Notes under the pieces: generated by a model
The model's input: only the letters and a program-made list of their open reading frames with translations
What the model was told of the DNA's origin: nothing
Databases searched by the model: none
Translations under genes and position numbers: made by a program
Virus record (IMG/VR): IMGVR_UViG_3300046103_002699
Coordinates: 3,807 to 67,806 of that record
DNA length: 64,000 bases
From: a virus
Lineage: Duplodnaviria > Caudoviricetes
Direction: 5' to 3' (one strand)
In this document: positions 1 through 64,000 of the stretch, in pieces
Layout: the number at the start of each line of letters is the position of its first letter
Position numbering within the stretch: the first letter of the stretch is position 1

Positions 1-749
1 CACGCTTCTGAGCCAAAAAAGTCTTGCCCGCACGCAGAGCCGTCAACTTTCAAATCTTGAGGTTCGCCGTCTCTCGTGTGTCGCGAGTCGTATGTCGTGT
101 CGAAATAATAGTTTCCGCAAACTTGCGACTTTGTTCTGTCGTATGCTAGTACAAATTTCATTTGCACTATTTGCGGCGTGGGTAGATTTTGTAATCCCGC
201 CGTGTGGTAAGCCCAACTCTCGCGAGGTATACTAGCAACTGCCAAGCCGCCTGCGGGCGACTCGTTGCCTAACTCAACGAATTTATGCATCTCACCACTA
301 CTCTCAGTGATCCGCGCTATGAACGACTCTCTTGGGGTTATGTCCAAGCAGAGATATTTTATCGATGCACCGCTTCGAGCTAAAATAAACTCAAAGTCCA
401 TGACGGGATTGTAAAACTCCCGCAGTCGAGGTGTACTGTAAGCTAAACCTTCTCTAACCTCCTGAACAATCCAAATAGTTTCTAGTTGGTTATAGCGCGC
501 TTGGATCAAATCGCCTGTTATCGGCACAGTGTAAGCAGCGCCGCCCGCCTCGACTAGTGTTAACAATTCATTAAAATGGCGTTCTGCTGACATTTTCCGC
601 TCTTGCTCCGAGCGACAGTCTCCTCCACACTCATCTATTTGGTGTACACGGTTTTCAACGTTGCCTGCGCCTTGTTCTTTACCGCTTGGTCTGTGTAGTT
701 CGCCTCTAAACTCTTCGCCGAATTTACCGCCTGTTGGTATTAAATCCAT
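1..749 (-). CDS. Virion-associated hypothetical protein, 3'-truncated by window edge (not in ORF track)
   Basis: ATG at 749, 5 nt after the stop of the 2217-aa gene; hand translation MDLIPTGGKFGEEFRGELHR...SACGQDFFGSEA stays open to position 1. Confidence 0.8.
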   Translation of the reverse strand, partial: MDLIPTGGKFGEEFRGELHRPSGKEQGAGNVENRVHQIDECGGDCRSEQERKMSAERHFNELLTLVEAGGAAYTVPITGDLIQARYNQLETIWIVQEVREGLAYSTPRLREFYNPVMDFEFILARSGASIKYLCLDITPRESFIARITESSGEMHKFVELGNESPAGGLAVASIPRESWAYHTAGLQNLPTPQIVQMKFVLAYDRTKSQVCGNYYFDTTYDSRHTRDGEPQDLKVDGSACGQDFFGSEA

Positions 750-754
750 ACCGT

Positions 755-3700
755 TTACGCCTTAGTCCAAACTTCGTTTCGGTAATAAACGCACCCACCA
801 AGAGCGACTACCCTGTCCGAGACTATTTTAATTACACTAGAATCTCCCTCACATTTTCCGCCTTTTAATTCGGATTCAATCCTAGCAGCAGGCGCACCCA
901 TAAACTTACAATCGGTGCATTCTGAGGAGTCAGCACCCACTACGCAATAGTCATGAAAAGTTTCTGTGTGTACAGTCACGCCGCCTGTGTGTAAGAAAAC
1001 AGTTCTTTCCAAAACTGGTGAGTAGTCATGCTCTTCTATGGTCGCGTTAGGCGGGGCTTGTTCTATAGACACCGCCACATTTGCAACTACTAATTGTTTT
1101 ACAGGAGACGCGATTATTTTGACTACCCCTTCAGGGCTAAGACCAAGCTGCCCTCTTTTAAAATACATCCCCGTGGCTCTAGTATAAAAACCTTGCGGCG
1201 GGTCGTAGCTTACTGTGGTGTATAAATCTCCAACATCATCGCATTTCATGCGAGTTTCCATGAGACATTTCCCTTGTCGGGCTGGCTGCTGGTTATACGC
1301 GCTTTCAGTGTAAACCACAGAACCGTCAGTACGGTATTGCGTCACTATTAACATCACTGCGGAGTTGTCATCTACAAATGTGTATTTGTAGCGCGTGAAA
1401 CAAGGGCCTTCTCCACCGCTTTCAGTTGACTCTGTCTGCGACATCAATCGTCCCGCTCCGTTCGGAGCTTGGTCAATTGACTCAATGGTAGTGTATGTGA
1501 TGCCACAACCATCTGTTTTAGATGTTCTAGAAACTTCTCCATACCCTTTTGCGAATGTGTAAGTGTAAATGGTGTAACAATCCGTGCCATTGAAACCTTT
1601 GCGGGTTACTTCTGATTTGCTCCACAAGCAACCTTGTCCTTGAGGAGGCTGTCCTATGCTTTTGATAGTAGTAAATACGACACCGCCTCGATTAGAAACG
1701 CTTCTATCGATTTCGCCGTCTCCTTCTGCGTATGTTGTTTCGTATATAGATAAACAAACACCGTTTTCGCCGTGAATTTCTTCTACCGCTTCTGATACTT
1801 TACACCCTGTCGCTGTAGCGGCTTGATCCATTTGACGTGTTGTGGTGTACAAAACTCCGTCACTCCACCTAGTTCTAGTGCTTAGTACTTTGCCATAAGG
1901 GGCGATAATATAAGTATAAACATATTTTTTAAAACAAGTGCCATCCATTCCCGTGACGTCTACTTCCGAACTTGTGAGCAAGCATCTGTTGCCAGCGGGA
2001 GCCTGTGGGGGCTGTCCTATCGAACGAATAGTTACTTCAGAATAACCTGACTTAGTGGAAACTGATCGGTCGTATTCTCCCGTGCCTTCGATAGTTTCCG
2101 TCTCATACACTGTGGCACAAGTGCCGTTAATGCCATCGATTGTGTAAGAAGACTCCGCTACCTTACACCCCGCACCTATAAAAGGAGCTTCGAGTGTTTT
2201 AGTAGTAGTCTTCTTTATTCCATTAGAACCGTGATTTACCGATTGTGATAAAATTCTATACGAGATGTTTTCCAAATATTCGTATTCATAAACAGTATAG
2301 CACGGGCCGTCCTCTGCGCCTTCGTGTATTATCTCTGATTTAGAAGTCAAGCATCCCTGACCCGCAGGCGCTTGTCCTACGGATTTGATTGTTTTATAAG
2401 TCAAACCGCCCGACGTTCTCACACTTGTACGGATTACACCTTCACCTGTTGCAAATTCTCTAGTGTATATGCTGTAGCAAGGGTTCCCGCCCATGTCGTT
2501 AATTTGTTTTTCGCCTTTACCGACCACGCAACCTCCGTTGGGTGGTATAGGAACAATGTTCGCCCCGACTACAGTCGTAGTAGTAACACCGTTACTGTTA
2601 GTTGAAGTGCTTTCCGAAATAATGTGACCGCTAGGCGGTACTAAAAAAGTGTAAGTGTATTGAGTGTCGCATTGAACTCCGTCTTTGTCGAAAATTCCTT
2701 CTTCGGCTTCTGCTAACATGCAACCTCCTGCGGGTGCGGCGGGAGGCGCTCCTATAGCGCGTACAGTAATTTCAACGCCACCATCTGATCTCGTCGAGGC
2801 TTTGTTGTCTATTATGCCCGTTCCTACTGTGAATTCGGCAGTGTAAACTGAAAAACAGACGGCACCGTCGATGTCTTTAATCTCTTTTTTACTTTCCCCC
2901 GTTTGACAACCTTTCCCTACGGGTACTTGACCGACCGATTTTATAGAGGTAATAGATTTACCACCTCCACTGCGAGTTGTTCTTTCGATTTCGCCCGCTG
3001 CGGGTGCTGATCCGTAAGTAGAAGTGTAGCGCGTAAAACACAAGGCTCCGTCAGCATCTCTAAACTCTTTAGTCTCTTCGCCCATAGTACAACCGCCTGC
3101 GGGTCTACCCCCGCCTTTGTTTGTGCTTACGACCGTAGTTAGTAACATGTTATCGGGGCCTGTTCGGGTGCTTCTAGAGATGACACCTGTTTGCCACATC
3201 ATAAAAGTGCGCGTTTCTATAGCGTCGCAGGCACCTCCCTTTATATCGTAGACGGTTTCAGTTGAGCGCTGCGTCACGCAAGTACCGCCTGCGGGAACCC
3301 CTCCAAATTTTTTGATTCTAGTAAAAGTAATACCGTCTGAAGAAGTGACACTTCTATCGAGCTCTCCTTGACCCGAAGTGTATTCAGCAGTGTAAATCGT
3401 GACGCACACACCTCCGTCGATGTCTTTTATCTCTTCTTTACCTTCCGCAGTTAAACAACCGTTACCTCCAGGCCTTGCCCCGATTGCTTTTATCCTAGTT
3501 ACCGTCAGCCCGCCGTTAGTCTTGACGCTTCTTTCTACCTCGCCCTGACCGCTTGCTAAAAATTCATAATCGTAAATTGTCAAACAATCTGCGCCGTCTA
3601 CGCTTTTTGTAACTTCTTCGCGTTTCGCGACTGTACAACCATTGCCCGTAGGCGCGGCTCCTATTGCTTTTATTCTAGTTCTAGTTAACCCCGCGCTAGT

Positions 3701-6700
3701 AGAGGTAGATCGTTCCAGTTCGCCTGCACCGCTTGCAAAGGTGTAATCAAATATTGAAAAACATTTTCCATTTACGCCATTAATCTCTTCTTCGCTTTTA
3801 GCAACTATACAGCCGTTCCCTTGAGGCGCAGCGCCGATTGTTTTTACTCTCTCCTTAGTGACACCACCGCTAGTGCTAGTGCTCCGCTCTAGCTCTCCCG
3901 CTCCTTCTGCAAATGTGTATTCGTAAATTGTGTAACAAGCTCCGTCTACGCCTTGGACTTCTTCTTCGCCTTTAGCTACCAAGCATCCGTCTCCTTGTGG
4001 AACCGCACCAATAGCGCGAATACGAGTTTTAGTAACGCCTCCACTAGAAGAAACAGACCGAGAAATCTCTCCCGCTCCTTCTACAAATGTATAGTCGTAA
4101 ATTGTATCGCACACACCTCCGTCAACGTCTTTAATTTGTTCTTCGCTTTTTGCTACGACGCACCCTGCGTTTGCGGGAATCCCGCCAAATTGTTTGATGC
4201 GAGTTTTAGTCACGCCGCCTGACGACGAAACAGACCGTTCCATTTCACCCGCGCCTTCTAAGAAAGTGTAATCGTAAAGAGTTTCGCACACAGCACCCGC
4301 TAGATCGAAAATTTGTTCTTCGTTTTTAGCAACTACACAACCGCCTACGGGAGCCGCTCCTATCGTTTTCTTTCTTCTTCTAGTTATGCCGTTTGAAGTG
4401 GAAACGCTCTCATCGACGACCCCAACTCCTTCTGCAAAAGTTTTGGAAAATACTTCCGCAAAGACGCTGCCGTCAACATCGTACAAAGATTTATCAGATT
4501 CAGCCGTGACACAACCACCTTGTGCGGGCATGTTGTTGATCGCTGTGATGTCAGTCAGCTTCATTTGTCCCGACATTCTCACGCTTTTAGAGACTTCGAG
4601 GTCGGCGGGTAGAACCGCGAACGTGTATTCGTATTCCGTGACTGCGTTGGCTCCGTCGAGACAATTGTGTCGCGTTTCGCGCTTCGCGATTATTGCTACG
4701 CTATTCGGGAAAACGGGTGGAGCGTTCCCTGTTTTAGAAACCGTTGGGTAAAAAATTCCGTATTGATCTGAACGAGTCGAGGTTACTAAATCGGGAATAT
4801 TTGCAGAAGAGGTGTACGTTTTCTTGTACAACACATAACCGTCTAGGTCTTCTATGTCCTGTGCGGTGACGCAACCCTGCGGTGCGGGCTCATCATCAAC
4901 CATTAAATAGGTTACAGTCGTGCGAATAGTGTCTCCCGAACTTGTTGATTTAGATTCCTGTATTCTGCCCGCTCCTAGTGCGTACACATCTGTAAATACT
5001 TCAAAGTTTCCGCTTCTGTCGCTTCTTTCGCTGACTCGCGTAAATCCAGCTTGATTCGGTGCTTGGGCTCCTATGCTCTGAATCGTCAGTATCTGTAGCG
5101 CGCCCTGTTTCCTCGTCTCTAGCTTCCTGTCGATCTCGCCTTGTCCCTGCACTCCCACAATCGTGTGGACTTCGTACCCATCTTTTTCCTCTGCGGTTGT
5201 ACGGTAGATTTGACCTTGCGGGATGGTAGTAGTGGGAATGCCCCCGTTTGCGGTTAGCCATACTTCTGTTGTTATCGTCGCTAGACCTTTTTCTTCTTCC
5301 GTACTACTAATAAGTCCCGCGCCTTTTGCGTAGACATCTGTAAAAACATCGTAACGACCGCTTTGGTTGAGTTTTTCTGACACTCTTACATACCCGTTAG
5401 GGACTGCGCTTTGTTGCCCTATGTTCTGTATAGTCAGTACTTCTAGCGCGCCGTTGTGTCGCACATCTAATTTTCGATCTATTTCCCCTGCTCCCACCAC
5501 ACCTCGTATTGTGTGGATTTCATAACCGTCACGCTCGTCTACTTTGGTCTCGAAAATTTGATTTGTAGGTATGTTTGAAGTCGGAGTTCCGCCATTCGGC
5601 ACGATGTGTACTTCTGTGGCAAGCTGCGCGGTACCTTTGTCTTCTTCCTCCGTGGATATCAATCCTAACCCCTTGACATACACATCTGTAAAGACATCGA
5701 ACTGCCCCGATTGGTTGTATGTTTGTGAAATTCTATCGTAACCCGCAGGGACTGCGCTTTGTTGCCCTATGTTTTGGATTCTTATTACAGAAAGGGCGCC
5801 GTTGTGCTTTGTTTCTTCTTTTCGCTCGATTTCTCCCGAACCGATTACGCCGCTGATGGTGTGTATTTCATAACCATCTTTTTCTTCTACCCGTGTTTGA
5901 AACACTTGGGTGGGTGGTATGTTAGAAGCAGGCGTTCCGCCGTTCACTGTAATGTGAACTTCTGTGGTAATTTGGGCGGTTCCTTTGTCTTCTTGAGAAG
6001 ATGACACAAGACCACTGCCTTTGACGTACACATCGGTAAAAACATCAAACCTACCTGATTGGTCGAAATTCTCCGAAATTCGTACATATCCCACGGGAGC
6101 TGTCGATTGCGCACCTATGTTTTTTATAGTGAGCACCGTGAGTGCTCCGTTGTGTTTGGTTTCTAAACGACGCTCAATTTCACCCTGTCCAACGACACCT
6201 CGTATGGTGTGGATTTCGTAGCCGTCTTTTTCTTCTAACTTAGTCTCAAAAATTTGATTAGGCGTAATACCGTGAGCGGGAACGCCTCCGTCGGGCGTTA
6301 TCCAAATTTCAGTTGTTATTTGAGCTGTGCCTTTGTCTTCCTCTTCTCTTGACACTAAACCTAAACCTTTAACATAAACATCTGTAAAAACATCAAACGA
6401 TCCGCTTTGGTCATGGTCTTCAGAAATTCTAACAAACCCCACAGGCACTGTGCTTTGGGCACCTATGTTTTTAATTGTAATTATTTCAAGCGCACCGTTG
6501 TAGCGCACTTCGTGCTTTCGATCAATTTCGCCTTGCCCGACTACGCCTTTGATTGTCCACAGATCATATCCGTCTTTGTCTTCTTCTCTCGTTTCGTAAA
6601 TCTGATTAGGAGGTATAGTACTATGAGGTGTGTAAGGATCGCCGTCGGCTACTATAATAACTTCTGTAGTAATTTGAGTAGGGCCTTTGTCTTCTTCTTC

Positions 6701-7408
6701 TACTATAATTCGTCCCGCTCCTTTAACCAAAGTCCATGACTTTACTTCAAGTCCTCCAAAGTTGTAGTCGGTAGAACCCGAACCTGACATACTTTCTACT
6801 AAAACCCAATCGGGTGCTAAACCCGCTTGAGCTAAAAAACTAGCCTGTGTGTCTATTCCAATAGAGCGGTAAGTACGTATTTTTAACTTTCCGTTGTACT
6901 TTACCTCTTCTTTAAAAGATACAATGCCTATTTCAAAGTATTCTTCTTTGTATTCTGCGTAGCACTCCTTTTCGTCGAAAGTGACTCTTGCAAGAACAGT
7001 CTCATCGCCGTTAGGTGTTACCCATTTTTCAGTTCCTACCCGTGCTTCACTCCAAGCAATATTATAAGGCTCTTTTACTATGTATGACTTAGTGACACGT
7101 ACTCTACCTATTCCGTCTCGTATGTAGTCGGGCGGGTCAATTTCTGCGGGTAGGTCGTTTACTTCTTGGTACACACGAGTCAAAACATCTTGGCTTGCGT
7201 CTTGGCTACCTTCTAGCTTTTGCTGAACCAATAAAGCTTCGCCGTACTCTTCGTCAGGCGTGCAGAAAGGTTGGAAAACAAGAGTTTCTACAGTTGGTTC
7301 GGCACTGCTAGGGCCATGAACCACGTACCTTCTAGTAATTTTACGTAAACCGTTAGTCGCTTTCTCAACAACAGGTTTACCAATAGGTCGTAAGAAGTCG
7401 TTTGGCAT
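755..7408 (-). CDS. 2217-aa repetitive virion fibre/tail protein
   Basis: About 5 copies of a ~116-aa unit (GEIDRK..NGAL..IG.QS..GY.R.S....SG.FDVFTDVY.KG) then about 20 copies of a ~60-aa unit, mostly with two Cys; lies directly after the adaptor gene. Confidence 0.7.
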   Translation of the reverse strand: MPNDFLRPIGKPVVEKATNGLRKITRRYVVHGPSSAEPTVETLVFQPFCTPDEEYGEALLVQQKLEGSQDASQDVLTRVYQEVNDLPAEIDPPDYIRDGIGRVRVTKSYIVKEPYNIAWSEARVGTEKWVTPNGDETVLARVTFDEKECYAEYKEEYFEIGIVSFKEEVKYNGKLKIRTYRSIGIDTQASFLAQAGLAPDWVLVESMSGSGSTDYNFGGLEVKSWTLVKGAGRIIVEEEDKGPTQITTEVIIVADGDPYTPHSTIPPNQIYETREEDKDGYDLWTIKGVVGQGEIDRKHEVRYNGALEIITIKNIGAQSTVPVGFVRISEDHDQSGSFDVFTDVYVKGLGLVSREEEDKGTAQITTEIWITPDGGVPAHGITPNQIFETKLEEKDGYEIHTIRGVVGQGEIERRLETKHNGALTVLTIKNIGAQSTAPVGYVRISENFDQSGRFDVFTDVYVKGSGLVSSSQEDKGTAQITTEVHITVNGGTPASNIPPTQVFQTRVEEKDGYEIHTISGVIGSGEIERKEETKHNGALSVIRIQNIGQQSAVPAGYDRISQTYNQSGQFDVFTDVYVKGLGLISTEEEDKGTAQLATEVHIVPNGGTPTSNIPTNQIFETKVDERDGYEIHTIRGVVGAGEIDRKLDVRHNGALEVLTIQNIGQQSAVPNGYVRVSEKLNQSGRYDVFTDVYAKGAGLISSTEEEKGLATITTEVWLTANGGIPTTTIPQGQIYRTTAEEKDGYEVHTIVGVQGQGEIDRKLETRKQGALQILTIQSIGAQAPNQAGFTRVSERSDRSGNFEVFTDVYALGAGRIQESKSTSSGDTIRTTVTYLMVDDEPAPQGCVTAQDIEDLDGYVLYKKTYTSSANIPDLVTSTRSDQYGIFYPTVSKTGNAPPVFPNSVAIIAKRETRHNCLDGANAVTEYEYTFAVLPADLEVSKSVRMSGQMKLTDITAINNMPAQGGCVTAESDKSLYDVDGSVFAEVFSKTFAEGVGVVDESVSTSNGITRRRKKTIGAAPVGGCVVAKNEEQIFDLAGAVCETLYDYTFLEGAGEMERSVSSSGGVTKTRIKQFGGIPANAGCVVAKSEEQIKDVDGGVCDTIYDYTFVEGAGEISRSVSSSGGVTKTRIRAIGAVPQGDGCLVAKGEEEVQGVDGACYTIYEYTFAEGAGELERSTSTSGGVTKERVKTIGAAPQGNGCIVAKSEEEINGVNGKCFSIFDYTFASGAGELERSTSTSAGLTRTRIKAIGAAPTGNGCTVAKREEVTKSVDGADCLTIYDYEFLASGQGEVERSVKTNGGLTVTRIKAIGARPGGNGCLTAEGKEEIKDIDGGVCVTIYTAEYTSGQGELDRSVTSSDGITFTRIKKFGGVPAGGTCVTQRSTETVYDIKGGACDAIETRTFMMWQTGVISRSTRTGPDNMLLTTVVSTNKGGGRPAGGCTMGEETKEFRDADGALCFTRYTSTYGSAPAAGEIERTTRSGGGKSITSIKSVGQVPVGKGCQTGESKKEIKDIDGAVCFSVYTAEFTVGTGIIDNKASTRSDGGVEITVRAIGAPPAAPAGGCMLAEAEEGIFDKDGVQCDTQYTYTFLVPPSGHIISESTSTNSNGVTTTTVVGANIVPIPPNGGCVVGKGEKQINDMGGNPCYSIYTREFATGEGVIRTSVRTSGGLTYKTIKSVGQAPAGQGCLTSKSEIIHEGAEDGPCYTVYEYEYLENISYRILSQSVNHGSNGIKKTTTKTLEAPFIGAGCKVAESSYTIDGINGTCATVYETETIEGTGEYDRSVSTKSGYSEVTIRSIGQPPQAPAGNRCLLTSSEVDVTGMDGTCFKKYVYTYIIAPYGKVLSTRTRWSDGVLYTTTRQMDQAATATGCKVSEAVEEIHGENGVCLSIYETTYAEGDGEIDRSVSNRGGVVFTTIKSIGQPPQGQGCLWSKSEVTRKGFNGTDCYTIYTYTFAKGYGEVSRTSKTDGCGITYTTIESIDQAPNGAGRLMSQTESTESGGEGPCFTRYKYTFVDDNSAVMLIVTQYRTDGSVVYTESAYNQQPARQGKCLMETRMKCDDVGDLYTTVSYDPPQGFYTRATGMYFKRGQLGLSPEGVVKIIASPVKQLVVANVAVSIEQAPPNATIEEHDYSPVLERTVFLHTGGVTVHTETFHDYCVVGADSSECTDCKFMGAPAARIESELKGGKCEGDSSVIKIVSDRVVALGGCVYYRNEVWTKA

Positions 7409-7409
7409 A

Positions 7410-8366
7410 TTAGTATCCTACTTTTAATCGTACTCTTCGACTGCGTACTTTCTGCGCGTCTCCTAAAGTTTTGAGACGTTTTTTAGCGTCTTCTGCGTCT
7501 GCTATTAAAAACTGAATGTTTTGTGAGTTGTATCGAGGGTCTACCATCGCGAGCTTTGCCCGCGCTATTGGGAGCAAAATATCATCAATTACATCTGCGG
7601 GTAGCACCGCTCGGTCTGCGTCTTTAGAAAGTTTTGTGGGTAAAATATTTGCCCGCAGTCGAATGCTGTACGGTTCTTGTGGTAGTGGGTATACGACTAG
7701 TCTTCTAGTTAAGACTGTTTCGTGTCCTAAGTTAGCGGAATCCACATAAAAAAACATAGGACTGCCGTAGTTATACTCATCGCCGTTTGTAGTAATGTGA
7801 GGGGCGCGTTTATTTCCAAAGGCAGTTTGCGGAGCAAAGTCGTATCCTAATAAGCTTCTATAGCGCGCCTCTTCGTCGTGCCCGTTCATTGGTGATAGTA
7901 CACCCCATCCAACACGTTCAGGACGTCCATCTACATCGACCACTTCTGCGGGCAGTCTTTGTGAGTTGTGATTTACTTTAAAAGTGGTTTCGCTCGTAGA
8001 AGAAGCCCCGATAAACTCTCCTGTCAGCGTTGTGCTGTCAACGCTTGCTATGCGGTTTGCGACTCCGCCAATAAAACACATGCTTCCCTCCATGTCTGAA
8101 GTTAAATCTGTTCCTGTGTAGCTGAAGGCAGTCGAGCCTTCTGTCGTCTGCCCTGCAATACTAATAACTCCTTTGTAATCGAAGCCCATAGCGCGTACAG
8201 ACCAAGGCGGACGAAACCCGTCTGACGGTGTGTACATCTCTCGGTAAGATTGGTTAATTATTTTTTTTATGCGCTCTTGTTCGACTAATGGTAGGTTACC
8301 CACGTCGGAAGCCCCCATCATAGCGCCTAGTTGGTTTTGCAAATCTAAAAAGTCACCGTCAGCCAT
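7410..8366 (-). CDS. Putative head-tail adaptor (tail tubular A / P22 gp4-like position)
   Basis: Follows the capsid gene; N-terminal helical segment (KKIINQSYREM) and C-terminal P...LSKDADR..LP....DDILLPIARAKLA pattern typical of podovirus adaptors. Confidence 0.55.
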   Translation of the reverse strand: MADGDFLDLQNQLGAMMGASDVGNLPLVEQERIKKIINQSYREMYTPSDGFRPPWSVRAMGFDYKGVISIAGQTTEGSTAFSYTGTDLTSDMEGSMCFIGGVANRIASVDSTTLTGEFIGASSTSETTFKVNHNSQRLPAEVVDVDGRPERVGWGVLSPMNGHDEEARYRSLLGYDFAPQTAFGNKRAPHITTNGDEYNYGSPMFFYVDSANLGHETVLTRRLVVYPLPQEPYSIRLRANILPTKLSKDADRAVLPADVIDDILLPIARAKLAMVDPRYNSQNIQFLIADAEDAKKRLKTLGDAQKVRSRRVRLKVGY

Positions 8367-8415
8367 AATATAGTATATTGTTCTGCTTACTAGTGGACGT
8401 AAACAAGTTGTATTA
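8367..8415 (-). promoter_or_regulatory. Late promoter with TAATACAAC box, 49 nt before ATG 8366
   Basis: Minus strand TAATACAAC-TTG-TTTACG...TATACTATATT-ATG; same geometry as five other sites. Confidence 0.55.
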
Positions 8416-11033: not shown

Positions 11034-11081
11034 TTAATTGATATACCAACAATACTGTAAAAATTACAAGCGGTTGTATTA
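11034..11081 (-). promoter_or_regulatory. Late promoter with TAATACAAC box, 48 nt before ATG 11033
   Basis: TAATACAAC-CGC-TTGTAA-N18-TATATC-N6-ATG; the TAA is also the stop of the upstream ORF. Confidence 0.65.
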
Positions 11082-11897
11082 TTGGGTAGGTGGGTTAGTT
11101 TTGTACGGATGAGATGAATCCAACTCCGATTCGACTCCCCATTTATGGGATAAATACCCCTCAAATTTTTGTCGGTTTGATTCGGTGACATCCTCGCAGA
11201 AGATGACTTCCGCGACTGATCCTGTAGGATATTGATCCTCACCTCGGTTTGTGAATATCCGTAAAGTTTGACTTAGTGAAAGGTTTGAATTTGTGCTTTG
11301 TGCCAACCCGATTAATTTTCCATTTATTCGGAAAGTATAATTATTTAAAGTCGAATCAAAACTAGCGGAGAATAGATTGAACCCGTTTAAATTATTAGAG
11401 TTAAGAATATCTGCTTGAGTTGTGAGAATTCCCGTCGATGTAAGTCGCCCCTTAAACCCCGATACATTCCCCGAATCAATTTGAAAATCTTTGAGAGCGT
11501 CGAGCGATAAAATTGAATCATTCCAATGATCTTGAGATGTAACATCGCATAAAATAAAAACTTGTAAATCGCCACTCGAAGGAAGCGAGAAATTCTCCTT
11601 CTCGAAATAATCATCACCATCAAGCTCGATTACATTAAGACTGTTCTGAGTCGATAATCCTGTGTGTGGATTATTGTTCGCGGTTAATAAATTAGCGTTG
11701 CCCGATTTGTCTGACCACGAAGTTACTAAATTATTTGTGGCGGTTATTGTGCTTGTGTCCGCTGCATCTGCCCACAATTCAAGCGTTAATTCGCTTGGGC
11801 TCCACGGAGTCGGGTTAGAACTCGCAGACGTGCTTAAAGAAGAGCTTGAGGATGCCCCACTAGAACTTGTAGAACTAGAAGGGCTACTTAGTTTCCC
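11079..11897 (-). CDS. -1 frameshift extension: Ser-rich linker plus concanavalin/LamG-like beta-sandwich domain
   Basis: Frame is open upstream of the track's TTG (11777) to 11906 with no other start codon; encodes LSSPSSSTSSSGASSSSS...PTPWSPSELTLELWADAAD; entered at the G GGA AAC site. Confidence 0.7.
   Translation of the reverse strand, partial: GKLSSPSSSTSSSGASSSSSLSTSASSNPTPWSPSELTLELWADAADTSTITATNNLVTSWSDKSGNANLLTANNNPHTGLSTQNSLNVIELDGDDYFEKENFSLPSSGDLQVFILCDVTSQDHWNDSILSLDALKDFQIDSGNVSGFKGRLTSTGILTTQADILNSNNLNGFNLFSASFDSTLNNYTFRINGKLIGLAQSTNSNLSLSQTLRIFTNRGEDQYPTGSVAEVIFCEDVTESNRQKFEGYLSHKWGVESELDSSHPYKTNPPTQ
11854..11897 (-). other. Programmed -1 ribosomal frameshift signal
   Basis: Slippery heptamer G GGA AAC (11897-11891) directly before TAA, 6-nt spacer, then hairpin GCCCTTCTAG/CTAGTGGGGC (9 of 10 pairs). 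Confidence 0.7.
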
Positions 11898-12259
11898 GAA
11901 GAAGAGCTAGAGGAAGTAGAACTGCTCGGAGAAGACACATCGGGAACAGGCTCGTTGGCGACGTCGCCTACGGCAAAATCAAAAGTTTGCGAGTATGTGC
12001 GCGAAACTGTGCCGTCTTGGTTAGTCGTATAAGAGCCCTCAAAAGAACTAACTCTTGTAGGTGGTACGCTCATGTCAGACAACTTATCGGTCAGCGTTTT
12101 AATAATAGCATATGCGACCTTGACTCCGTTGCCTGTTGTAGCGTTTGCTTCTGAAGCTGTGAGTTCTCCTAGAGGAAACAAGTCTGCTAAATTTAGCGTA
12201 ACACTTGTAGTGTCCGCTGAATAGTTATCTCCGAATAAATCTGTTGGTGTAGCTGACAT
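11888..12259 (-). CDS. 123-aa virion (decoration-like) protein with Ser-rich tail
   Basis: Has its own late-promoter box; ends VSSPSSSTSSSSSSGN at the slippery site. Confidence 0.6.
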   Translation of the reverse strand: MSATPTDLFGDNYSADTTSVTLNLADLFPLGELTASEANATTGNGVKVAYAIIKTLTDKLSDMSVPPTRVSSFEGSYTTNQDGTVSRTYSQTFDFAVGDVANEPVPDVSSPSSSTSSSSSSGN

Positions 12260-35285: not shown

Positions 35286-35304
35286 TCAGAAAGGAAATAA
35301 TAAT

Positions 35305-36597: not shown

Positions 36598-36616
36598 TAA
36601 AACACTACATACTACA

Positions 36617-57847: not shown

Positions 57848-58165
57848 ATGAAAACCACAACAACATTAAAACAAATCACCCACACAGGTGGATTCACAGG
57901 AGATTGGGAAATAATTAATTTAGCCAAAGAGGAGGGTCTCGTGATTGCCACCCCACTTAGCAAAGACATAGCCGTGACGCGGTATGCGTACAAATCTATC
58001 TTGTACCTAGAGCAACTAGGTTTTGAGGTGGTTGATGAAGGTGGTGAGGTTTTACTTCCATACTATAGAGGGTGGTTAAATATAGAGAAAACTCTGCCTA
58101 ATCTCAGTAGTAGTTCTCCTGTAAAACTATCGCCCACTAAAGGCAATCCTGTACGTTGGTTTTGA
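57848..58165 (+). CDS. Hypothetical protein
   Basis: SD AAGGAGG upstream. Confidence 0.7.
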   Translation: MKTTTTLKQITHTGGFTGDWEIINLAKEEGLVIATPLSKDIAVTRYAYKSILYLEQLGFEVVDEGGEVLLPYYRGWLNIEKTLPNLSSSSPVKLSPTKGNPVRWF

Positions 58166-58168
58166 CTC

Positions 58169-58399
58169 ATGGAACCAACACTAGAAACAATAGCCGACAA
58201 AGAACCCACGCTCGAAGACTTACAAGAAAAAGTCGGCGGTCTGATCGAGGTCGTTCGCCTTATGGATGGGAGTCAACTCATAGTAAACGAAGAAGGCACC
58301 ATTCATGATCTTCCTCACAACTCCAAAGCGAGTGCCGTTGCGCAACAACCCATTGTGGGTAACGCTGTAGTGCTACGCGGAGACGCTAGGTTAACTTAG
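58169..58399 (+). CDS. DUF3846-like protein
   Basis: PTLEDLQEKVGGLIEVV..LIVNEEG..LPHN..IVGNAVV. Confidence 0.75.
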   Translation: MEPTLETIADKEPTLEDLQEKVGGLIEVVRLMDGSQLIVNEEGTIHDLPHNSKASAVAQQPIVGNAVVLRGDARLT

Positions 58400-58411
58400 G
58401 AGACAAACCAA

Positions 58412-58756
58412 ATGATCATATACAAAGTACACGAAGACGACGACGGGATGGGGAGTCCCTTCGTCGGATATTATTCGACCAAGCTCGAAGCGACCCGAAC
58501 ATTGAGAGAAGCGATCAAGGATCGTTTCGAGAGAGAGCAATCCGAACTTGAAGATCGACTCGACAGGACGGAGGATTATGACGCGGACGATCACATCGTC
58601 GAGGGTATCGGGTCGCAGATCGGGGGACGACCTCGCAAGATTCAAGAAGGAGAAATCCGCAAGCTTGAGATCAAGGGAAAGGTCGCGACCGTCGAAGCTT
58701 TAAACGATGCGGTCGAAGAAGGAGTACAAGCGTCGGGGGGGGATGACCGATCATAA
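58412..58756 (+). CDS. Acidic hypothetical protein with atypical DNA composition
   Basis: SD AGGAG; 8 GATC and 8 TCGA sites in 345 bp. Confidence 0.7.
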   Translation: MIIYKVHEDDDGMGSPFVGYYSTKLEATRTLREAIKDRFEREQSELEDRLDRTEDYDADDHIVEGIGSQIGGRPRKIQEGEIRKLEIKGKVATVEALNDAVEEGVQASGGDDRS

Positions 58757-58768
58757 AGAAAGGAAAGC

Positions 58769-60598
58769 CTAGAGAGTGTTCTGTAGAAGGTAACCAACTT
58801 CAAAGTCTTTCAGAAACCAAGAAGCATTGGTTGGCGCTATTACGTATAAACGCACTTTGAGCTGTTTTCCTCTCATGTTGAGAAAAACTTTTATTTCATC
58901 GTCCATGATTTCGCCTACCCATTTCCCACTCTCAAGACCGTCTTCAGTTTGAGCGTAGACACCTAGAAATCCAATCGAACCTGTTTTGAATTTCAAAAAC
59001 ACTTCCATGAAATTTTTCATAGATTCGGGGGCGCCCATGTCTTCGTAAGAAGTTTCGATCACGCTTACTGTTGACTGAGAAAACTTTTGGTAGTCTCCGA
59101 TAGAAGCGGGTAAAGCTCCTTCTACGGGTTTGCTAAACGCTCCCGCATAGTTCATAGCGTCTACACCACCCTCACCTTCATAGAACAGGTCTAACTGTTC
59201 AGCCGAGTTGCCTCCTATTTGCACATACCCCTGTCTTGTCTGTATAGGTAGGTTGCCATTAGAAGCTAGAACTTTTGTCGATGACGGTGTGTTAGAATAC
59301 TTTAAATAAACATTAGGTTTAACATTTGCGGGCGGGGCGGGGTATGGATCGTTAAAACTTGAAGTCTCTCTCAAATCCGTAAAATCTGTCATCCAGAAAT
59401 TTTGGTCTTGGTCGATTCCTAATAGCGCACTAGTTCCATCGATTCTAGTGACGGCTTGAAAGCGAGGGTATAGATTCGGCCCACTAAGAGCAAATGTTTC
59501 TCCGTTATATAAAAACATCGGATAGCCTTTACTCACACCTGTGGAAAGGTGGGGCACGCAGACGCTTAAAAATTCTGCACTAGGTTCGTATGCCGTAAAG
59601 GAACCTGTTAAGTTAACAGCTACATGACGATTCCAAGCGTTAACTGCTTTCCATGAAATGATTTCTTTTATTCGACCTTCTGTCGTGTGATCTTGTCCCG
59701 CACGCGCGGCTTCGTCTTTGTAAATCTGCCCGTCAGTTCCCAAATAGTAAGGACGCACTCCCATGTTCGCACTCGCGCTATTAGGATTAAGAGCACCACT
59801 AACCGTCGGTGAAGCTGTTTGACGAACGCGGTATCCCGTACCCGCCTGTTGTTTTTCTGTTCTGTACAGTAAAGCTACTCCCACATCAGTGTGAACTACT
59901 ACATAATTTCTAAAAGTTGATAGTGCCGTGATCCGCGAAGCTTCTGACATGATTATATTTACAGTAGACATGACTCCACTGTAGATGCCTTGCAGAGCGT
60001 CTTCTACGTCGGGGTTCGCGATTGTGGCGGGCTCTGAAACATAAACTGCCATCGGGTCAGCGGAATTGCCCGTTGCGTAAATTGCTTTATCGGGCCCGAC
60101 AACAAAAGAAGTACATGAAGGAAAAATCTCCGCTGCCTGCGCGTAAAGTTTATCAGGTTGTTGTTGTAGCGCGTTGAAAGCGTAATTAGTAGCCTGTCCC
60201 CATCGAAGGTTAGCGTTAACTCCGTCTCCTACAAAAAGCTCACTGCCTACTCTGTTGATAAACGCACCTGTTAGGGTGTTATCAGTTGCGGTTACCGTTG
60301 AAGCATTCGCGGGTAGTTTATCAACACTAGTTGAATTTGAAACCCACGCTAAACCATGTACATCACTACCGTTCTTAGTTACGACTACTTTATGCCCGTT
60401 ACCGTCTAAACAATACGCTAGACTTTCTATCGGCAGTGTAAGGTTTTCATACACTCGCTTCCACATAGGAGCACTTCGCAAACTGCCTTTAGGGTAGGGC
60501 ACTGCGTTTTCGCAAATAGTTAGAGACCCTCGATCTTGGTCGGTCTCTTCGGCTTGGTTTTGTATCCCGCTAAAATTTTTAACTCTAAAGTATCTCAT
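58769..60598 (-). CDS. Putative tail nozzle / tubular B-like beta-propeller protein
   Basis: 609 aa; starts YFRVKNFSGIQ..CENAVP..GSLRSAP as in podovirus nozzle proteins; beta-rich; last gene of the late operon. Confidence 0.55.
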   Translation of the reverse strand: MRYFRVKNFSGIQNQAEETDQDRGSLTICENAVPYPKGSLRSAPMWKRVYENLTLPIESLAYCLDGNGHKVVVTKNGSDVHGLAWVSNSTSVDKLPANASTVTATDNTLTGAFINRVGSELFVGDGVNANLRWGQATNYAFNALQQQPDKLYAQAAEIFPSCTSFVVGPDKAIYATGNSADPMAVYVSEPATIANPDVEDALQGIYSGVMSTVNIIMSEASRITALSTFRNYVVVHTDVGVALLYRTEKQQAGTGYRVRQTASPTVSGALNPNSASANMGVRPYYLGTDGQIYKDEAARAGQDHTTEGRIKEIISWKAVNAWNRHVAVNLTGSFTAYEPSAEFLSVCVPHLSTGVSKGYPMFLYNGETFALSGPNLYPRFQAVTRIDGTSALLGIDQDQNFWMTDFTDLRETSSFNDPYPAPPANVKPNVYLKYSNTPSSTKVLASNGNLPIQTRQGYVQIGGNSAEQLDLFYEGEGGVDAMNYAGAFSKPVEGALPASIGDYQKFSQSTVSVIETSYEDMGAPESMKNFMEVFLKFKTGSIGFLGVYAQTEDGLESGKWVGEIMDDEIKVFLNMRGKQLKVRLYVIAPTNASWFLKDFEVGYLLQNTL

Positions 60599-61194
60599 TT
60601 GTTTTGGTATTTGTAGCTAAAGTGCTCAATATCTTTTGCGTACCTAGTCTCGACCGTTTGTTTACTTTTTTCAGCGTAATAGCGCGAGTAATGCGCATGT
60701 TTAGTTTGATTCCAACGATGACGTTGCACAAAGGTCGTGTTTAAGGATTCACAAACATGGGCGATGTCTTCCTCTATGTTTTCCACTTTTCCAACAAAAT
60801 CTAACTCAATACGCCCGTCACAAGACAACCAATCATAACAGCTACCATGATCGCTCCACAAATTGGCAAAACGCTTATCGCCTAAGTTTTGACTGATCTT
60901 AGCAGTGCTGTTTAGTTTGGCGTTATTTACAAACTTTTCAAAACTTATGTCTATGTCTTGCCTGTTTTTCCAAAAATACCATGAAACTTCTAAAGCCCAC
61001 GGGTTTCGGACAAACCCAAATTTAAAATATTCGTCCCACACATCGCTGTAGCGCGCTTTGGCTTCTTCCGCCGACAAGTGTTTTTGAGCTTTGTCTACAC
61101 GCCACCAATCACGACCGTCTAAAACTTTTTCTACATAAGTTCCCGCACATCTAGGGATGTGTATAAAAATGCACTTTAATTCGTGATTAATCAT
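60595..61194 (-). CDS. Sulfotransferase (Sulfotransfer_2-like)
   Basis: IFIHIPRCAGT 5'-PSB loop, FGFVRNPW..VSWY 3'-PB motif, DFVGKVENIEED. Confidence 0.85.
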   Translation of the reverse strand: MINHELKCIFIHIPRCAGTYVEKVLDGRDWWRVDKAQKHLSAEEAKARYSDVWDEYFKFGFVRNPWALEVSWYFWKNRQDIDISFEKFVNNAKLNSTAKISQNLGDKRFANLWSDHGSCYDWLSCDGRIELDFVGKVENIEEDIAHVCESLNTTFVQRHRWNQTKHAHYSRYYAEKSKQTVETRYAKDIEHFSYKYQNK

Positions 61195-61991
61195 TTAGAC
61201 ATTAATTCCAAAGCGAGCACTTCGTTACCGCCTTTTTTGACTAAGTTATGCCCTAAGTATTCCTGTAACATAATCCGTATTTTTAACGAACCACTCCATC
61301 CGCAAAAGTGTAGCAGTTTAGCGTCCCAATAACTACTGACTTTTTTACATTGAAATGGAAATTTTACATAGTATGGGGGTAGTGCTTTGCTGCTGAAAAC
61401 ATCTGAGTGGATCATTTTGTTAAACGGGCTTTGGTCTTGTAGCTTGCTGTTTCTGTACCACTCGTTTTCGAGCGTGTTTCTCCAAGTCGCCCACACCTCA
61501 TTCGCCTTGTGATTACGCACCACAAACTGACCGCTATTTATACCGTGACGGCGTTTTTGCAGTAGCTTTTTCATTTGTTGAGGTGTCCAACAGGAGTTAA
61601 ACGCTCGCCTTGAAGCATTTCCACGTTCGTAAGCATAACTTATATCTGCATCGCAGTCGTTAAAGAAGTGCGCGGGGCTACTGAGAAATAAAACATCAGT
61701 GTCACAAAACATTACTCTTTCCCACTTAGAAAAATCTACATACTTATCTAAGTGCATTTTAATGCCTTGGATACGGTGGCGATCTCTACCTAATTCAGGG
61801 TTGTAGTGTATCTCTAAATCGTTTGCTCGCTCCTCTGTGTGGTCAAAAAAAGTTTCAGCTTGGTTGTGAACCACTAAAAAATCGCCTTTATAACCGCTAC
61901 GCCTCACGGACGAGTGCAGAAGTTTAGCCTGCAAGCGGTGTCCTAACTTTGGCGGTTGGTCGCACGCAAAGGTAAGTATTAAGTCTTTCAC
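61191..61991 (-). CDS. GT-A fold glycosyltransferase (GT8/GT77-like)
   Basis: FCDTDVLF DxD motif, INSGQF, DQSPFN, LHFCG. Confidence 0.8.
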   Translation of the reverse strand: MKDLILTFACDQPPKLGHRLQAKLLHSSVRRSGYKGDFLVVHNQAETFFDHTEERANDLEIHYNPELGRDRHRIQGIKMHLDKYVDFSKWERVMFCDTDVLFLSSPAHFFNDCDADISYAYERGNASRRAFNSCWTPQQMKKLLQKRRHGINSGQFVVRNHKANEVWATWRNTLENEWYRNSKLQDQSPFNKMIHSDVFSSKALPPYYVKFPFQCKKVSSYWDAKLLHFCGWSGSLKIRIMLQEYLGHNLVKKGGNEVLALELMSK

Positions 61992-62719
61992 TTTTCGTAC
62001 TTACTCTTTTTAGGAAACATTTTTTCAACAGCTTCTTTCATTTCGGGCGAAAAACTGTTGTCGTTAAAATTTAAATACCGACACTCTTGTATTTTTTTAA
62101 TCATGGTTTCCGTGTTGGGAAATTTCCCGTAAAAACCCGCTCGAATTTTACCCTCGTTAATATGAGCTATTTCAGAAGTGTCTACAGTGTTGAAGTACAA
62201 CGAAAACACGCAGTAACCAATATCGTAGCCGTAATCAAAGTTTAGATATGTGTGGAGTTTGGACTTTTCCAAAACGTAAGGGATGTGCCCTTCGTAGTCT
62301 CTTTGAGGGTACCCGTTTTTTGCTAAAATGTCTTTTGTCCTCCACAGTCGCTGTGCCCATTTGTTGTTAGCAAAGTCACTTTTTTTCATTTCCGACATGT
62401 CTTTATTAAAGTAAGGCTTTATGTCATTGTCCCACGAAGGCTGTAGGAAGTAGTGATCATCGCTCATCATAATAAATTTTTCAGACAAAGAACTCTCGTA
62501 TCCAAGCCTTACAATCTTAGATATAAGATTTGCGTCTTTATTTTTAAGGTATGGATCGCCTTGGGCTACGTGTGTAATGGCTTTAGCCCATTTTGGCAGA
62601 TGTCCAATTATCCAAACTCGTTCTAAATTTTTGTAGTTCTTTTCTAAAGAACGTAGACTGTAGCGCAGCTCCCAATCGTCTAATTTAGACTCAGAGCCGT
62701 TCATGTAAACTGCGTCCAC
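61988..62719 (-). CDS. Stealth-family hexose-1-phosphate transferase-like protein
   Basis: CR2-like ELRYSLRSL..VWIIG..PKW and LSEKFIMMSDD; CR4-like YLNFND..EKMFPKKSKYE. Confidence 0.75.
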   Translation of the reverse strand: MDAVYMNGSESKLDDWELRYSLRSLEKNYKNLERVWIIGHLPKWAKAITHVAQGDPYLKNKDANLISKIVRLGYESSLSEKFIMMSDDHYFLQPSWDNDIKPYFNKDMSEMKKSDFANNKWAQRLWRTKDILAKNGYPQRDYEGHIPYVLEKSKLHTYLNFDYGYDIGYCVFSLYFNTVDTSEIAHINEGKIRAGFYGKFPNTETMIKKIQECRYLNFNDNSFSPEMKEAVEKMFPKKSKYEK

Positions 62720-62720
62720 T

Positions 62721-62945
62721 CTAAAGACCTCCCGTATTTCGCAAAGCTGCTAACATTTCGTCGTGCTTTTTCTTATTATCCGCAACCAACTCTTCGTGAG
62801 TTTTTTTATGTTCGTCACTTTTGTACGGAAACAAAGCATTTAGCTTTTGCTGACGCTTTTTACACGAACCGCACTGCTTAATCCCCAAAGCGTTTGTAAC
62901 TTTTTTAACAGTATCACCTAGACCTTTGCTTTTTTCTTCGCTCAT
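62721..62945 (-). CDS. Small CxxC protein of a recurrent aquatic-phage family
   Basis: SKGLGDTVKKVTNALGIKQCGSCKKRQQKLNALFPY. Confidence 0.7.
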   Translation of the reverse strand: MSEEKSKGLGDTVKKVTNALGIKQCGSCKKRQQKLNALFPYKSDEHKKTHEELVADNKKKHDEMLAALRNTGGL

Positions 62946-62948
62946 AAA

Positions 62949-64000
62949 TTAGCCAAATGTTGTTCTATTATTCGCAGAGCAGGCGAAATTGCACGAACAG
63001 CACCCCTCTTGTGTCCAAACACCTCCTTGGTTGTTTGTTGCGGGATTGTTGTTAAATGAAGTAACGCTATAGCCACCCCAATAAGTAGCATTAGGTGGGG
63101 GATTATTTGTTTGAACTGCTTGAAGCGCAACATATTGCTGATTCCCAAAGCTTACTACATCCCCAGTTGCGTAAGTTGTAGCGCTGTCATAAGTGGGCGA
63201 TGGCGCGCCTCCTGTCAGTTTATACAGACAAGCAGCTTGGTTTCCTACTACCCACACTTCTGAGCCTAGAGTATATGTCGTACTTGAACTATACTGACCT
63301 GAAAGTCCCGTAGTACCCGTACCTGTGTAGGTACAACTACTGTCGTATAGCTGATCGCAAATACTAGTGTACTGCGACTGAAACTGTCGTTCACAACAAT
63401 CACAAGTGCTATTAGTAGAATCATAGCTAAAGTCCCCCGCGCCCCCTACTGCGGGAGAGTTTGAGCTCTCTAGTAAAATTTTGCGTTGATCACAGTCTAC
63501 TATGGAAGGCTGCCCGACCGTGACACACTGCCCGCCGAGAGCGGCTGCGGTAGAGCCGTAAGGAAAACCCACTGCGGCATCTGAAATAAAACCGTTAGCC
63601 CAATCACCTCCTATGAGAAGAGCCGAACCGTCGCAAGGGCTAGGTGCGGGGTAAGACCAATAATCAGTAGAATCCGAAGTGCATGAGATGCTAGACAGCG
63701 AACTTGGCGACGCAGACGGTGACTCAGACGGCGAACTAGAACTGCTAGAAGACGGTGAAGGTGACGGTGAACTAGAACTGCTAGAAGACGGTGAAGGTGA
63801 AGGTGACGGTGACGGTGACGGTGAACTAGAACTGCTAGAAGACGGTGAAGGTGAAGGTGAAGGTGACGGTGAAAGTGAAGGTGAAGGTGAAGGTGAAGGT
63901 GAAGGTGAAGGGGTAGAAGTAGATGAAGAAACTCCTTGGCACTCATCGCAGTCGTCGTAATAACCGTTTTGCACGAGTACATTAAAATCGTCTAAACCAC
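62949..64000 (-). CDS. Cys-rich virion protein with Ser/Pro stalk and CBM5/12-like motifs, 5'-truncated by window edge
   Basis: Frame stays open from 63974 to 64000 (GLDDFNVLVQNG); SPSPSP/SSSSS tract; YSSSTTYTLGSEV and YDSATTYATGDVVSFGNQQYVAL..PPNATYW motifs; many Cys. Confidence 0.75.
   Translation of the reverse strand, partial: GLDDFNVLVQNGYYDDCDECQGVSSSTSTPSPSPSPSPSPSLSPSPSPSPSPSSSSSSSPSPSPSPSPSPSSSSSSSPSPSPSSSSSSSPSESPSASPSSLSSISCTSDSTDYWSYPAPSPCDGSALLIGGDWANGFISDAAVGFPYGSTAAALGGQCVTVGQPSIVDCDQRKILLESSNSPAVGGAGDFSYDSTNSTCDCCERQFQSQYTSICDQLYDSSCTYTGTGTTGLSGQYSSSTTYTLGSEVWVVGNQAACLYKLTGGAPSPTYDSATTYATGDVVSFGNQQYVALQAVQTNNPPPNATYWGGYSVTSFNNNPATNNQGGVWTQEGCCSCNFACSANNRTTFG
63700..63930. repeat. 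Coding hexamer repeat (GAAGGT/GACGGT)n encoding the Ser-Pro stalk
   Basis: Directly visible tandem hexamers plus a repeated GAACTAGAACTGCTAGAAGACGGT unit. Confidence 0.95.

Follow-up and report, generated by a model that had tools for sequence, protein, structure and literature searches.

A cassette of carbohydrate-active enzymes and Ser-rich proteins in the tail operon of a podovirus-like marine phage

Why would a phage place glycan enzymes among the genes for its tail? The window studied here, a 64,000-nt stretch comprising bases 3807-67806 of the 67,806-nt IMG/VR record IMGVR_UViG_3300046103_002699 (the whole contig is L002 in our numbering of loci), raises this question with a cassette of five soluble carbohydrate-active enzymes interleaved with two Ser-rich proteins. 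An earlier note, made from the letters of the window, had placed glycan enzymes within the virion operon; all three enzymes that it named are present, and the gene for a tail nozzle is coupled downstream of them. We put at about one half the probability that these enzymes glycosylate and sulfate the phage's own tail-associated Ser/Pro-rich proteins, late and in the cytoplasm, before or during assembly. Such a function would fit where the cassette lies, its coupling to the nozzle gene and the fact that no export signals are present; it would also fit the gain of enzymes together with Ser-rich proteins, and mycobacteriophages offer a precedent.

The cassette lies within an unbroken late operon

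The right end of the contig (~118 nt) is a copy of its left end (window 63880-64000, contig 1-130), inside a Ser/Pro-coding repeat. The genome is therefore circular or terminally redundant: the record, classed as 'linear' by IMG/VR, broke during assembly in the repeat, whose copy number at the junction is uncertain. Since the junction can be closed, the Ser/Pro protein at the window end is complete and the minus-strand late operon is unbroken. Starting at the terminase gene (window 31086), this operon crosses window position 1, takes in the contig's initial 3.8 kb and re-enters the window at 64000, to finish at 58769. The genes of its late unit are, in order (coordinates are those of the window unless the contig is named; ORF, open reading frame):

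7410..8415, minus strand: 318-aa tail protein (phrog_10775), with the nearest exact late-promoter box at 8401-8415
755..7408, minus strand: 2217-aa tail fibre, directly upstream of the 857-aa protein, its N-terminal ~85 residues conserved in relatives
1..749 (N-terminal part) and contig 1982-3806, minus strand: 857-aa Ser/His/Cys-rich protein, called as an ORF
first 3.8 kb of the contig, minus strand: 343-aa GH130-like enzyme, called from its family profile and relatives
contig 259-951, minus strand: 230-aa sulfotransferase, the second of two
62949..64000 and contig 1-243 (first 39 codons), minus strand: Ser/Pro- and Cys-rich protein, 388 aa in full, its ORF joined across the junction
62721..62945, minus strand: 74-aa protein with the motif GLGDT-x-KK-x-T-x7-C-x2-C (phrog_32048, 7.6e-14)
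61988..62719, minus strand: 243-aa minimal Stealth-family enzyme, resembling hexose-1-phosphate transferases in motifs, fold and phmmer search
61191..61991, minus strand: 266-aa GT-A glycosyltransferase
60595..61194, minus strand: 199-aa sulfotransferase
58769..60598, minus strand: 609-aa tail nozzle protein, called by fold, last gene of the unit; its ATG overlaps the stop of the 199-aa sulfotransferase gene by 4 nt

Because the last gene encodes the nozzle, the enzymes sit between fibre and nozzle. From the fibre stop to the nozzle start, every junction is a gap of at most 15 nt or a 4-nt overlap, and those in the window part are gaps of 1 nt or 3 nt or overlaps of 4 nt, in line with the translational coupling of the enzymes that the earlier note had described.

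A box search found six exact copies of the late-promoter box, and the one at 8401-8415 is the likely start of the transcription unit that holds the cassette. No further exact copy occurs in the ~17-kb gene run from there to the nozzle. Scans for sigma-70-like promoters and for terminators found no strong example of either in this run, and the window part was near background; the contig-start part had 12 promoter-like matches where 5 were expected, most of them within a His-repeat on the non-coding strand. We rejected a one-mismatch box at 63079-63093, within the Ser/Pro gene, as a promoter: it lies 148 nt from the next ATG, compared with 47-49 nt, and 1.75 such boxes are expected by chance. 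The enzyme genes would be transcribed late, judging from gene order, because the coupled nozzle gene lies downstream of them and a podovirus cannot assemble without its nozzle.

By hydropathy, neither a membrane helix nor a signal-peptide-like N-terminus is present in any of the enzymes or in either Ser-rich protein, as the earlier note had said of its three enzymes. The maximal 19-residue Kyte-Doolittle mean of the enzymes is 0.67-1.28, and no segment of any cassette protein reaches 1.6. These values support a cytoplasmic location for the enzymes and the Ser-rich proteins alike. The phage proteins scanned include no genes for synthesis of 3'-phosphoadenosine 5'-phosphosulfate (PAPS) or nucleotide sugars, so the enzymes would depend on host pools.

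The last gene encodes a predicted tail nozzle

The 609-aa protein has no family match by sequence, and its 18 homologues are all metagenomic. Its AlphaFold2 model has moderate confidence (predicted local distance difference test, pLDDT, 68; predicted template-modelling score, pTM, 0.72). All of the top 30 Foldseek matches of this model are podovirus tail or nozzle proteins, from Pa223, VP1, SU10, P22 (gp10), T7 (gp12) and crAss001. In VIA-align the sole full-length match was the Pa223 tail chain (398 residues, Z 14.3), the others being generic beta-propellers. The model matches the nozzle architecture of a beta-propeller with C-terminal beta domains, as in T7 gp12, P22 gp10 and the SU10 nozzle. 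We conclude that the product is probably a podovirus nozzle, and thus a core virion gene product; the fold search agrees with the nozzle-like call made for this gene earlier.

In distant relatives (L100, L104, L108, L110 and others) the nozzle is enlarged, reaching 750-960 aa, or else a separate downstream ORF encodes its conserved C-terminal ~220 residues; this suggests insertions in the middle of the protein.

The 74-aa protein is encoded directly upstream of the nozzle gene in enzyme-free relatives and stands alone before the nozzle in most relatives, which marks it as an ancestral partner of the nozzle gene. In fuller form, its motif reads GLGDT..K.T...GIK.C..C..R...LN...PYK. The motif is fused to the C-terminus of a sulfotransferase in L093 (1564-2247) and of a GT32-like enzyme in L115 (4867-5766), and may be a docking or assembly module. 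A search for longer proteins bearing it found one.

A minimal Stealth enzyme

We wondered whether the 243-aa protein is a Stealth phosphotransferase, as the earlier note had proposed. In Pfam its Stealth_CR2 score (31.0 bits) is below the gathering cutoff of 39.4, yet its motifs, its match to GNPTAB and its fold agree on the assignment. It carries the motif set of the Stealth conserved regions: a D-x-V-Y N-terminal strand, ELRYSLRS, a DD pair, H-x-P and a C-terminal FLN-x-ND-like region. In phmmer it matches the catalytic domain of GNPTAB (GlcNAc-1-phosphotransferase) at 8.9e-6, over a range spanning ELRYSLRS, DD and H-x-P. Among 34 homologues of ~240 aa, residues E17, S21, R23, S24, S86-D87-D88 and H145 are invariant, and most homologues have a precomputed match to PF11380. 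The AlphaFold model has a pLDDT of 95.8, and its best Foldseek matches in the PDB are CpsY of M. tuberculosis (8j2n, 2.8e-11) and GNPTAB entries, with query template-modelling scores (TMq) of 0.63-0.73; ordinary GT-A enzymes rank well behind. In the BFVD database this fold recurs in two viral proteins of ~235 aa, and 'Stealth protein' entries from giant viruses are listed there too. Motifs and fold thus confirm the protein as a minimal Stealth enzyme, with hexose-1-phosphate transfer as its predicted activity.

The phage protein has the ELRYSLRS, (S/N)DD and H-x-P motifs and the fold in common with the N. meningitidis capsule polymerases CsaB/CsxA, with M. tuberculosis CpsY (8j2n) and with animal GNPTAB (7s6n, 9bgf). 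Unlike these enzymes, it is only 243 aa long, its conserved regions being fused without spacer or accessory domains, and it is encoded in a phage tail operon. Characterised members use sugars as acceptors and are not known to modify protein directly (on the family, see PMC5974469).

The other cassette enzymes

For the sulfotransferase and the glycosyltransferase of the window, the calls made earlier hold at Pfam scores above cutoff. The 199-aa protein matches Sulfotransfer_2 (PF03567, 1.4e-8, 35.6 bits against a cutoff of 22) and phrog_3347 (8.6e-15), and has the PAPS-loop-like motif IPRCAGT and the motif RNPW. The 266-aa GT-A protein matches Nucleotid_trans (PF03407, 6.7e-9, 36.5 bits against 22) and has a D-T-D motif; it has no sequence match in the PDB.

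Two more enzymes are encoded beyond the window, in the first part of the contig. The 230-aa sulfotransferase matches PF13469 (Sulfotransfer_3, 47.5 bits against 27) and PF00685 (Sulfotransfer_1, 22.7 against 22), has a P-loop-like PRSGTT motif, and resembles tyrosylprotein sulfotransferases over residues 6-33 only. The 343-aa protein itself has no Pfam match, GH130 (PF04041) included, and is placed there tentatively, through its family. It has matches in 259 library proteins, and 20 of 40 aligned relatives match PF04041. Searched against GH130 beta-1,2-mannoside phosphorylases and a mannoside synthase (7fip, 9fj8 and Uhgb_MS 9erg), the family profile gives 2.8e-16 to 3.7e-10, and an E-D-x-R motif and one His are invariant in the family. 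The call agrees with the Atlas lead (score 0.97). The 343-aa protein is like the GH130 phosphorylases and synthases in family profile, E-D-x-R motif and His, and unlike them in belonging to a largely viral subfamily and having no Pfam match of its own. Its context would suggest a biosynthetic role: GH130 beta-1,2/1,3-mannoside enzymes can work synthetically, from mannose 1-phosphate (Man-1-P) or GDP-mannose (PMC12814180, PMC4264767).

The cassette is therefore not confined to the 'trio' that had been described as a unit; five enzymes are encoded here, and relatives exchange the glycosyltransferase and a sulfotransferase.

Ser-rich proteins are candidate acceptors

The 388-aa protein starts at contig 243, contains 17 Cys residues and has no transmembrane helix. 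Two features fall within it:

63684..63941, minus strand: Ser/Pro tract of ~88 residues, made of (SP)n and poly-Ser blocks and encoded by a 54-nt DNA repeat
63108..63194, minus strand: sub-threshold motif like carbohydrate-binding module (CBM) 5/12 (PF02839, E 0.002)

The tract is about twice the ~45 residues first given for it, and the CBM5/12-like motifs named alongside it fall short in Pfam, at 18.5 bits against a cutoff of 26.2.

A conserved acidic Tyr/Cys motif, YYDDCDEC, is encoded directly before the Ser/Pro tract (contig 100-130, minus strand), and L088 has EYADCEEC (2900-3070). Tyr sulfation is conceivable but was set aside as unsupported: the PAPS-loop match to tyrosylprotein sulfotransferases covers only 28 residues, and at that position L088 has a Sulfotransfer_2 gene.

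Five Ser/Thr/Pro tracts, adding up to 265 residues, occur in the 857-aa protein, which also contains 32 HSH motifs and one CCCDCCCC motif and matches nothing in Pfam or PHROG. Its composition suggests a metal-binding, disulfide-rich stalk. One poly-Ser run is ~75 residues long, ~230 residues consist of His repeats of the GDHSHS/DTDHSH type (75 His), and a small 'VTWYLVTADECPDV' unit is duplicated between Ser tracts.

A further candidate acceptor is encoded in the head region:

11079..12259, minus strand: 123-aa protein with the C-terminal Ser tag SSPSSSTSSSSSSGN and a Ser-rich extension in the -1 frame (phrog_10356, virion structural protein)

The earlier note had proposed that a frameshift at 11891 creates a Ser-rich stalk here, and the region is indeed Ser-rich in both frames. 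A link through phrog_10356 between the frameshift product and neighbours of Stealth genes elsewhere came down to one weak match and was dropped.

Enzymes and Ser-rich proteins were gained together

To place the cassette among related phages, we used a nozzle-profile search, which returned 33 marine metagenome loci, many of them from Tara. The relatives share a backbone of capsid, tail protein, fibre (conserved at its N-terminus), variable genes, 74-aa protein, nozzle and a convergent integrase gene. Enzymes are encoded in the window and in L086, L087, L088, L090, L092 and L093, in each of which the nozzle gene is coupled downstream of them. In the nozzle tree these loci and the short contig L089 group as a single clade (100/100 support), and among 29 related marine contigs Ser/Thr/Pro-rich proteins are confined to it.

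All five enzyme-bearing loci with enough upstream sequence (the window, L087, L088, L090 and L092) encode, in the adjacent protein, a 30-residue segment of 77-100% Ser/Thr/Pro. No such segment exceeds 67% in the 20 enzyme-free relatives. Among the 78 plus-strand ORFs of the latter, a Pfam census found a single glycosyltransferase (in L115) and no sulfotransferase, Stealth or GH130 gene. No homologues of the Ser-rich proteins occur in the enzyme-free relatives, and the 388-aa protein has homologues only in enzyme-bearing ones. Enzymes and Ser-rich proteins have been kept together while nozzle identity falls from 97% to 39%, which points to joint acquisition and joint retention.

The enzymes themselves are exchanged. 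L086 and the window are ~94% identical in DNA across the Stealth gene and again across the nozzle and beyond; between them, 1.39 kb encoding the glycosyltransferase and sulfotransferase is replaced in L086 by 1.26 kb of unrelated sequence, with breakpoints at the Stealth stop and the nozzle start. The replacement encodes another Sulfotransfer_2 protein and a 221-aa protein with a DSDD motif. The 266-aa GT-A gene has likewise given way to non-homologous genes in L088. By analogy, such modular turnover is the pattern seen at loci for glycans displayed at a surface, be it that of a cell or of a particle. A swap at 94% DNA identity also offers a natural experiment on which enzymes matter. Directly after the nozzle gene, L086 (3869-4369) and L088 (8753-9403) have a TylF/CmcI-like (sugar O-)methyltransferase gene.

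Minimal Stealth genes in other phages

Homologues of the minimal Stealth protein are encoded on 313 IMG/VR contigs. They also occur in cultured Mycobacterium phages, at 26-27% identity, with further matches in Gordonia and Streptomyces phages. One of them, gp6 of Mycobacterium phage Fionnbharth (L120, 1273-1959), is 27% identical to the window protein, is annotated as hypothetical and lies just upstream of the terminase genes; it provides a culturable entry point and a possible experimental handle. The immediate neighbours of these genes are mostly unannotated, and those with a match are mainly glycosyltransferases, methyltransferases, sulfotransferases and head or tail morphogenesis genes. 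In an unrelated myovirus-like lineage (L021, 6730-10726 of IMGVR_UViG_3300025010_000009, with L018 and L014), a methyltransferase, a sulfotransferase-HAD fusion and a minimal Stealth protein are encoded as a block between capsid/cement genes and a DUF3383 tail-sheath-like gene. The placement of Stealth and sulfotransferase genes in structural modules is thus recurrent.

A proposed mechanism and its rivals

If the phage modifies its own tail proteins, the enzymes would draw on host nucleotide sugars and PAPS as donors. The GT-A enzyme would start or extend an O-glycan on Ser residues of the tracts, the Stealth enzyme would add hexose-1-phosphate to a sugar, forming a phosphodiester, the GH130-like enzyme would add beta-mannose from Man-1-P or GDP-mannose, and the sulfotransferases would add sulfate. 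Exchange of the enzyme set between near-identical phages would then give different types of virion glycan. The chemistry of a phosphodiester-linked, sulfated glycan on Ser, and any mimicry of sulfated polysaccharides by it, is conjecture throughout. We offer only tentatively the fuller picture of a mucin-like tail coat, in which the Ser/Pro tracts of the two tail-operon proteins carry O-glycans of sugar-phosphodiester, beta-mannose and sulfate esters, and 'glycan serotypes' arise in natural populations by exchange of enzyme genes at fixed recombination points.

Several points weigh against glycosylation of the phage's own tail proteins. Characterised Stealth acceptors are sugars in polysaccharides or N-glycans, typical GH130 enzymes are catabolic, and Ser/Pro linkers are common without glycosylation. 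Neither the major capsid protein nor the 318-aa tail protein has a Ser/Thr-rich C-terminus or a Ser/Thr-rich best 12-residue window. Because the enzyme-bearing loci are one clade, their co-occurrence with Ser-rich proteins is a single evolutionary event and not repeated evidence, and one member, L093, has GH130-like and sulfotransferase genes with no Ser-rich sequence in its 500 nt upstream. The earlier note had called for a test of co-occurrence across phages. Within the clade the expectation stood, enzymes and Ser-rich proteins being found only together; outside it the link to Ser-rich tracts does not generalise, and one of the refuting outcomes that the note had named is partly realised. 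A strongly Ser/Thr/Pro-rich ORF lies within 10 kb at 4 of 67 non-redundant minimal-Stealth loci, and these include the close relative and one probable frame artefact, besides independent cases in L008 (a Ser-rich 559-aa protein beside an 880-aa Stealth fusion) and L045 (a protein ending in (SP)24). A Ser/Thr-rich C-terminal tag occurs at 1 of 65 loci, and in the L021 lineage the Stealth block comes without Ser tracts and the capsid and tail proteins without Ser tags. Finally, the phage is temperate, and 950 nt separate the end of the cassette from the integrase gene, where host-converting genes typically sit.

This last point leads to the next most credible function, which we nevertheless think unlikely: that the enzymes alter a host polysaccharide (O-antigen, capsule or an exopolysaccharide precursor), in the lysogen or late in infection, and so block superinfection or the adsorption of progeny to debris, the Ser-rich proteins then being fibre-like with flexible linkers. 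The nearby integrase-like gene is of the tyrosine type, and in temperate phages the classical place of serotype-converting modules is between tail genes and int/attP. The PHROGs category of the sulfotransferase family is 'moron, auxiliary metabolic gene and host takeover', the cassette swap between near-identical phages resembles the diversity of O-antigen modification, minimal Stealth genes mostly lack Ser-rich neighbours, and known Stealth enzymes build polysaccharides (PMC5974469). Since the nozzle gene lies downstream and overlaps the last enzyme gene, however, the cassette is not at the end of the operon, and the scans gave it no convincing internal promoter or terminator. None of its products has a membrane segment, unlike converters of the Gtr or Oac type, and the enzymes and Ser-rich proteins have been acquired and retained jointly.

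Less probable still is a polymer that is free or attached non-covalently, that is, a phosphodiester-linked, sulfated oligo- or polysaccharide released at lysis or bound to the virion by lectin- or CBM-like domains. CsaB and CsxA are self-sufficient hexose-phosphate polymerases (PMC5974469), GH130 enzymes use Man-1-P to elongate beta-mannans (PMC4264767), the L021-lineage block lacks Ser tracts, and the Ser/Pro protein has its weak CBM5/12-like motifs, the frameshift product being lectin-like by eye only. The CBM match is sub-threshold, though, the proteins scanned revealed no genes for a primer, a lipid carrier or export, and the restriction of Ser/Thr/Pro-rich proteins to the enzyme-bearing clade is left unexplained. 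That the enzymes decorate modified bases of the phage DNA is very improbable. The phage does have a C5-cytosine methyltransferase and a Mom-like protein, and phage glycosyltransferases that glycosylate 5-hydroxymethylcytosine (5hmC) are known (bioRxiv 10.1101/2023.12.21.572611). Against this, no TET or 5hmC-forming enzyme turned up among the neighbours of the methyltransferase gene or the early genes that were scanned, and the cassette lies in the tail module, not in the replication module. Sulfotransferases, Stealth and GH130 enzymes have no part in DNA modification that we know of.

Comparison with known systems

PMC11256854 and PMC12582341, which cite the original work, describe phage-encoded glycosylation of mycobacteriophage virions and a glycan shield that alters antibody production and binding. 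Modification of the tail proteins here would be like that system in relying on phage-encoded soluble glycosyltransferases in the cytoplasm, with the phage's own structural proteins as substrate and a glycan coat on the surface. It would differ in its acceptors, which are capsid proteins in the mycobacteriophages: here the capsid has no Ser tag, and the candidate acceptors are long Ser/Pro tracts in proteins of the tail operon. It would also differ in its enzymes, since the mycobacteriophages use glycosyltransferases only and a Stealth enzyme, a GH130-like enzyme and two sulfotransferases are added here. The O-glycosylation is reportedly that of Che8 and other cluster F1 phages, in work by Freeman et al. 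in 2023 (Cell Host Microbe), and tail-tube subunits are said there to be acceptors too. To our knowledge, covalent glycosylation of virions by phage-encoded enzymes has been shown by experiment only for mycobacteriophages.

The glycosylation of serine-rich-repeat adhesins in Gram-positive bacteria is similar in that soluble cytoplasmic enzymes are encoded next to a long Ser-rich substrate, which here is a candidate. These adhesins are O-glycosylated in the cytoplasm by GtfA/GtfB and accessory glycosyltransferases. In contrast, no cassette protein has a GT-B match of the GtfA/B type in Pfam, there is no accessory Sec system or signal peptide, and the phage product would be released by lysis and incorporation into virions. 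The GtrABC/Oac serotype-converting modules are alike in placing variable glycan-modifying genes between the tail genes and the integrase gene of a temperate phage. The products of such modules are membrane proteins, and their genes stand apart from the structural operon and are active in the lysogen, whereas all cassette products are soluble and the nozzle gene is coupled downstream.

We found no paper on a phage with Stealth and sulfotransferase genes together, or on sulfated virions, in keeping with the earlier remark that no phage system with this enzyme trio has been described. Virion glycosylation by phage enzymes is already known; the Stealth and sulfate chemistry would be new, if real. 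Were the mucin-like tail coat borne out, it would give the first example of a phage particle that is sulfated or phosphoglycosylated, and a viral parallel to capsule and O-antigen switching. Virion glycosylation would then be widespread and chemically diverse, and would add a layer of variation at the phage surface that affects how the phage adsorbs, how readily it sticks to marine polymers and how well it resists proteases or grazers. It would also yield a set of small soluble enzymes: the 243-aa Stealth protein, short sulfotransferases and a viral GH130-like synthase.

Marker genes and other features of the genome

The source is an uncultured marine phage, which its marker genes show to be podovirus-like and temperate. 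The markers are an SU10-type portal (4.6e-36), a major capsid protein (Phage_capsid_3 / phrog_334), a large terminase, the 318-aa tail protein and the integrase-like gene at 56645-57823. The portal protein had no tblastn match among cultured phages, and a nozzle-profile search of genome contigs gave only a 38-residue match at chance level, in an archaeal metagenome-assembled genome.

The phage probably modifies its own DNA in two ways. The Mom-family protein is encoded at 43963-45042 (7.1e-13), downstream of the C5-cytosine methyltransferase gene (41581-42738) and a PD-(D/E)XK nuclease-like ORF. In the window, three small genes on the opposite strand follow the nozzle gene (57848-58756), where L086 and L088 have their methyltransferase gene. 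Window positions 33744-37504 encode an AAA_5 ATPase and a CobT-like VWA protein, which we take to resemble the CobS/CobT-like pair of other marine phages.

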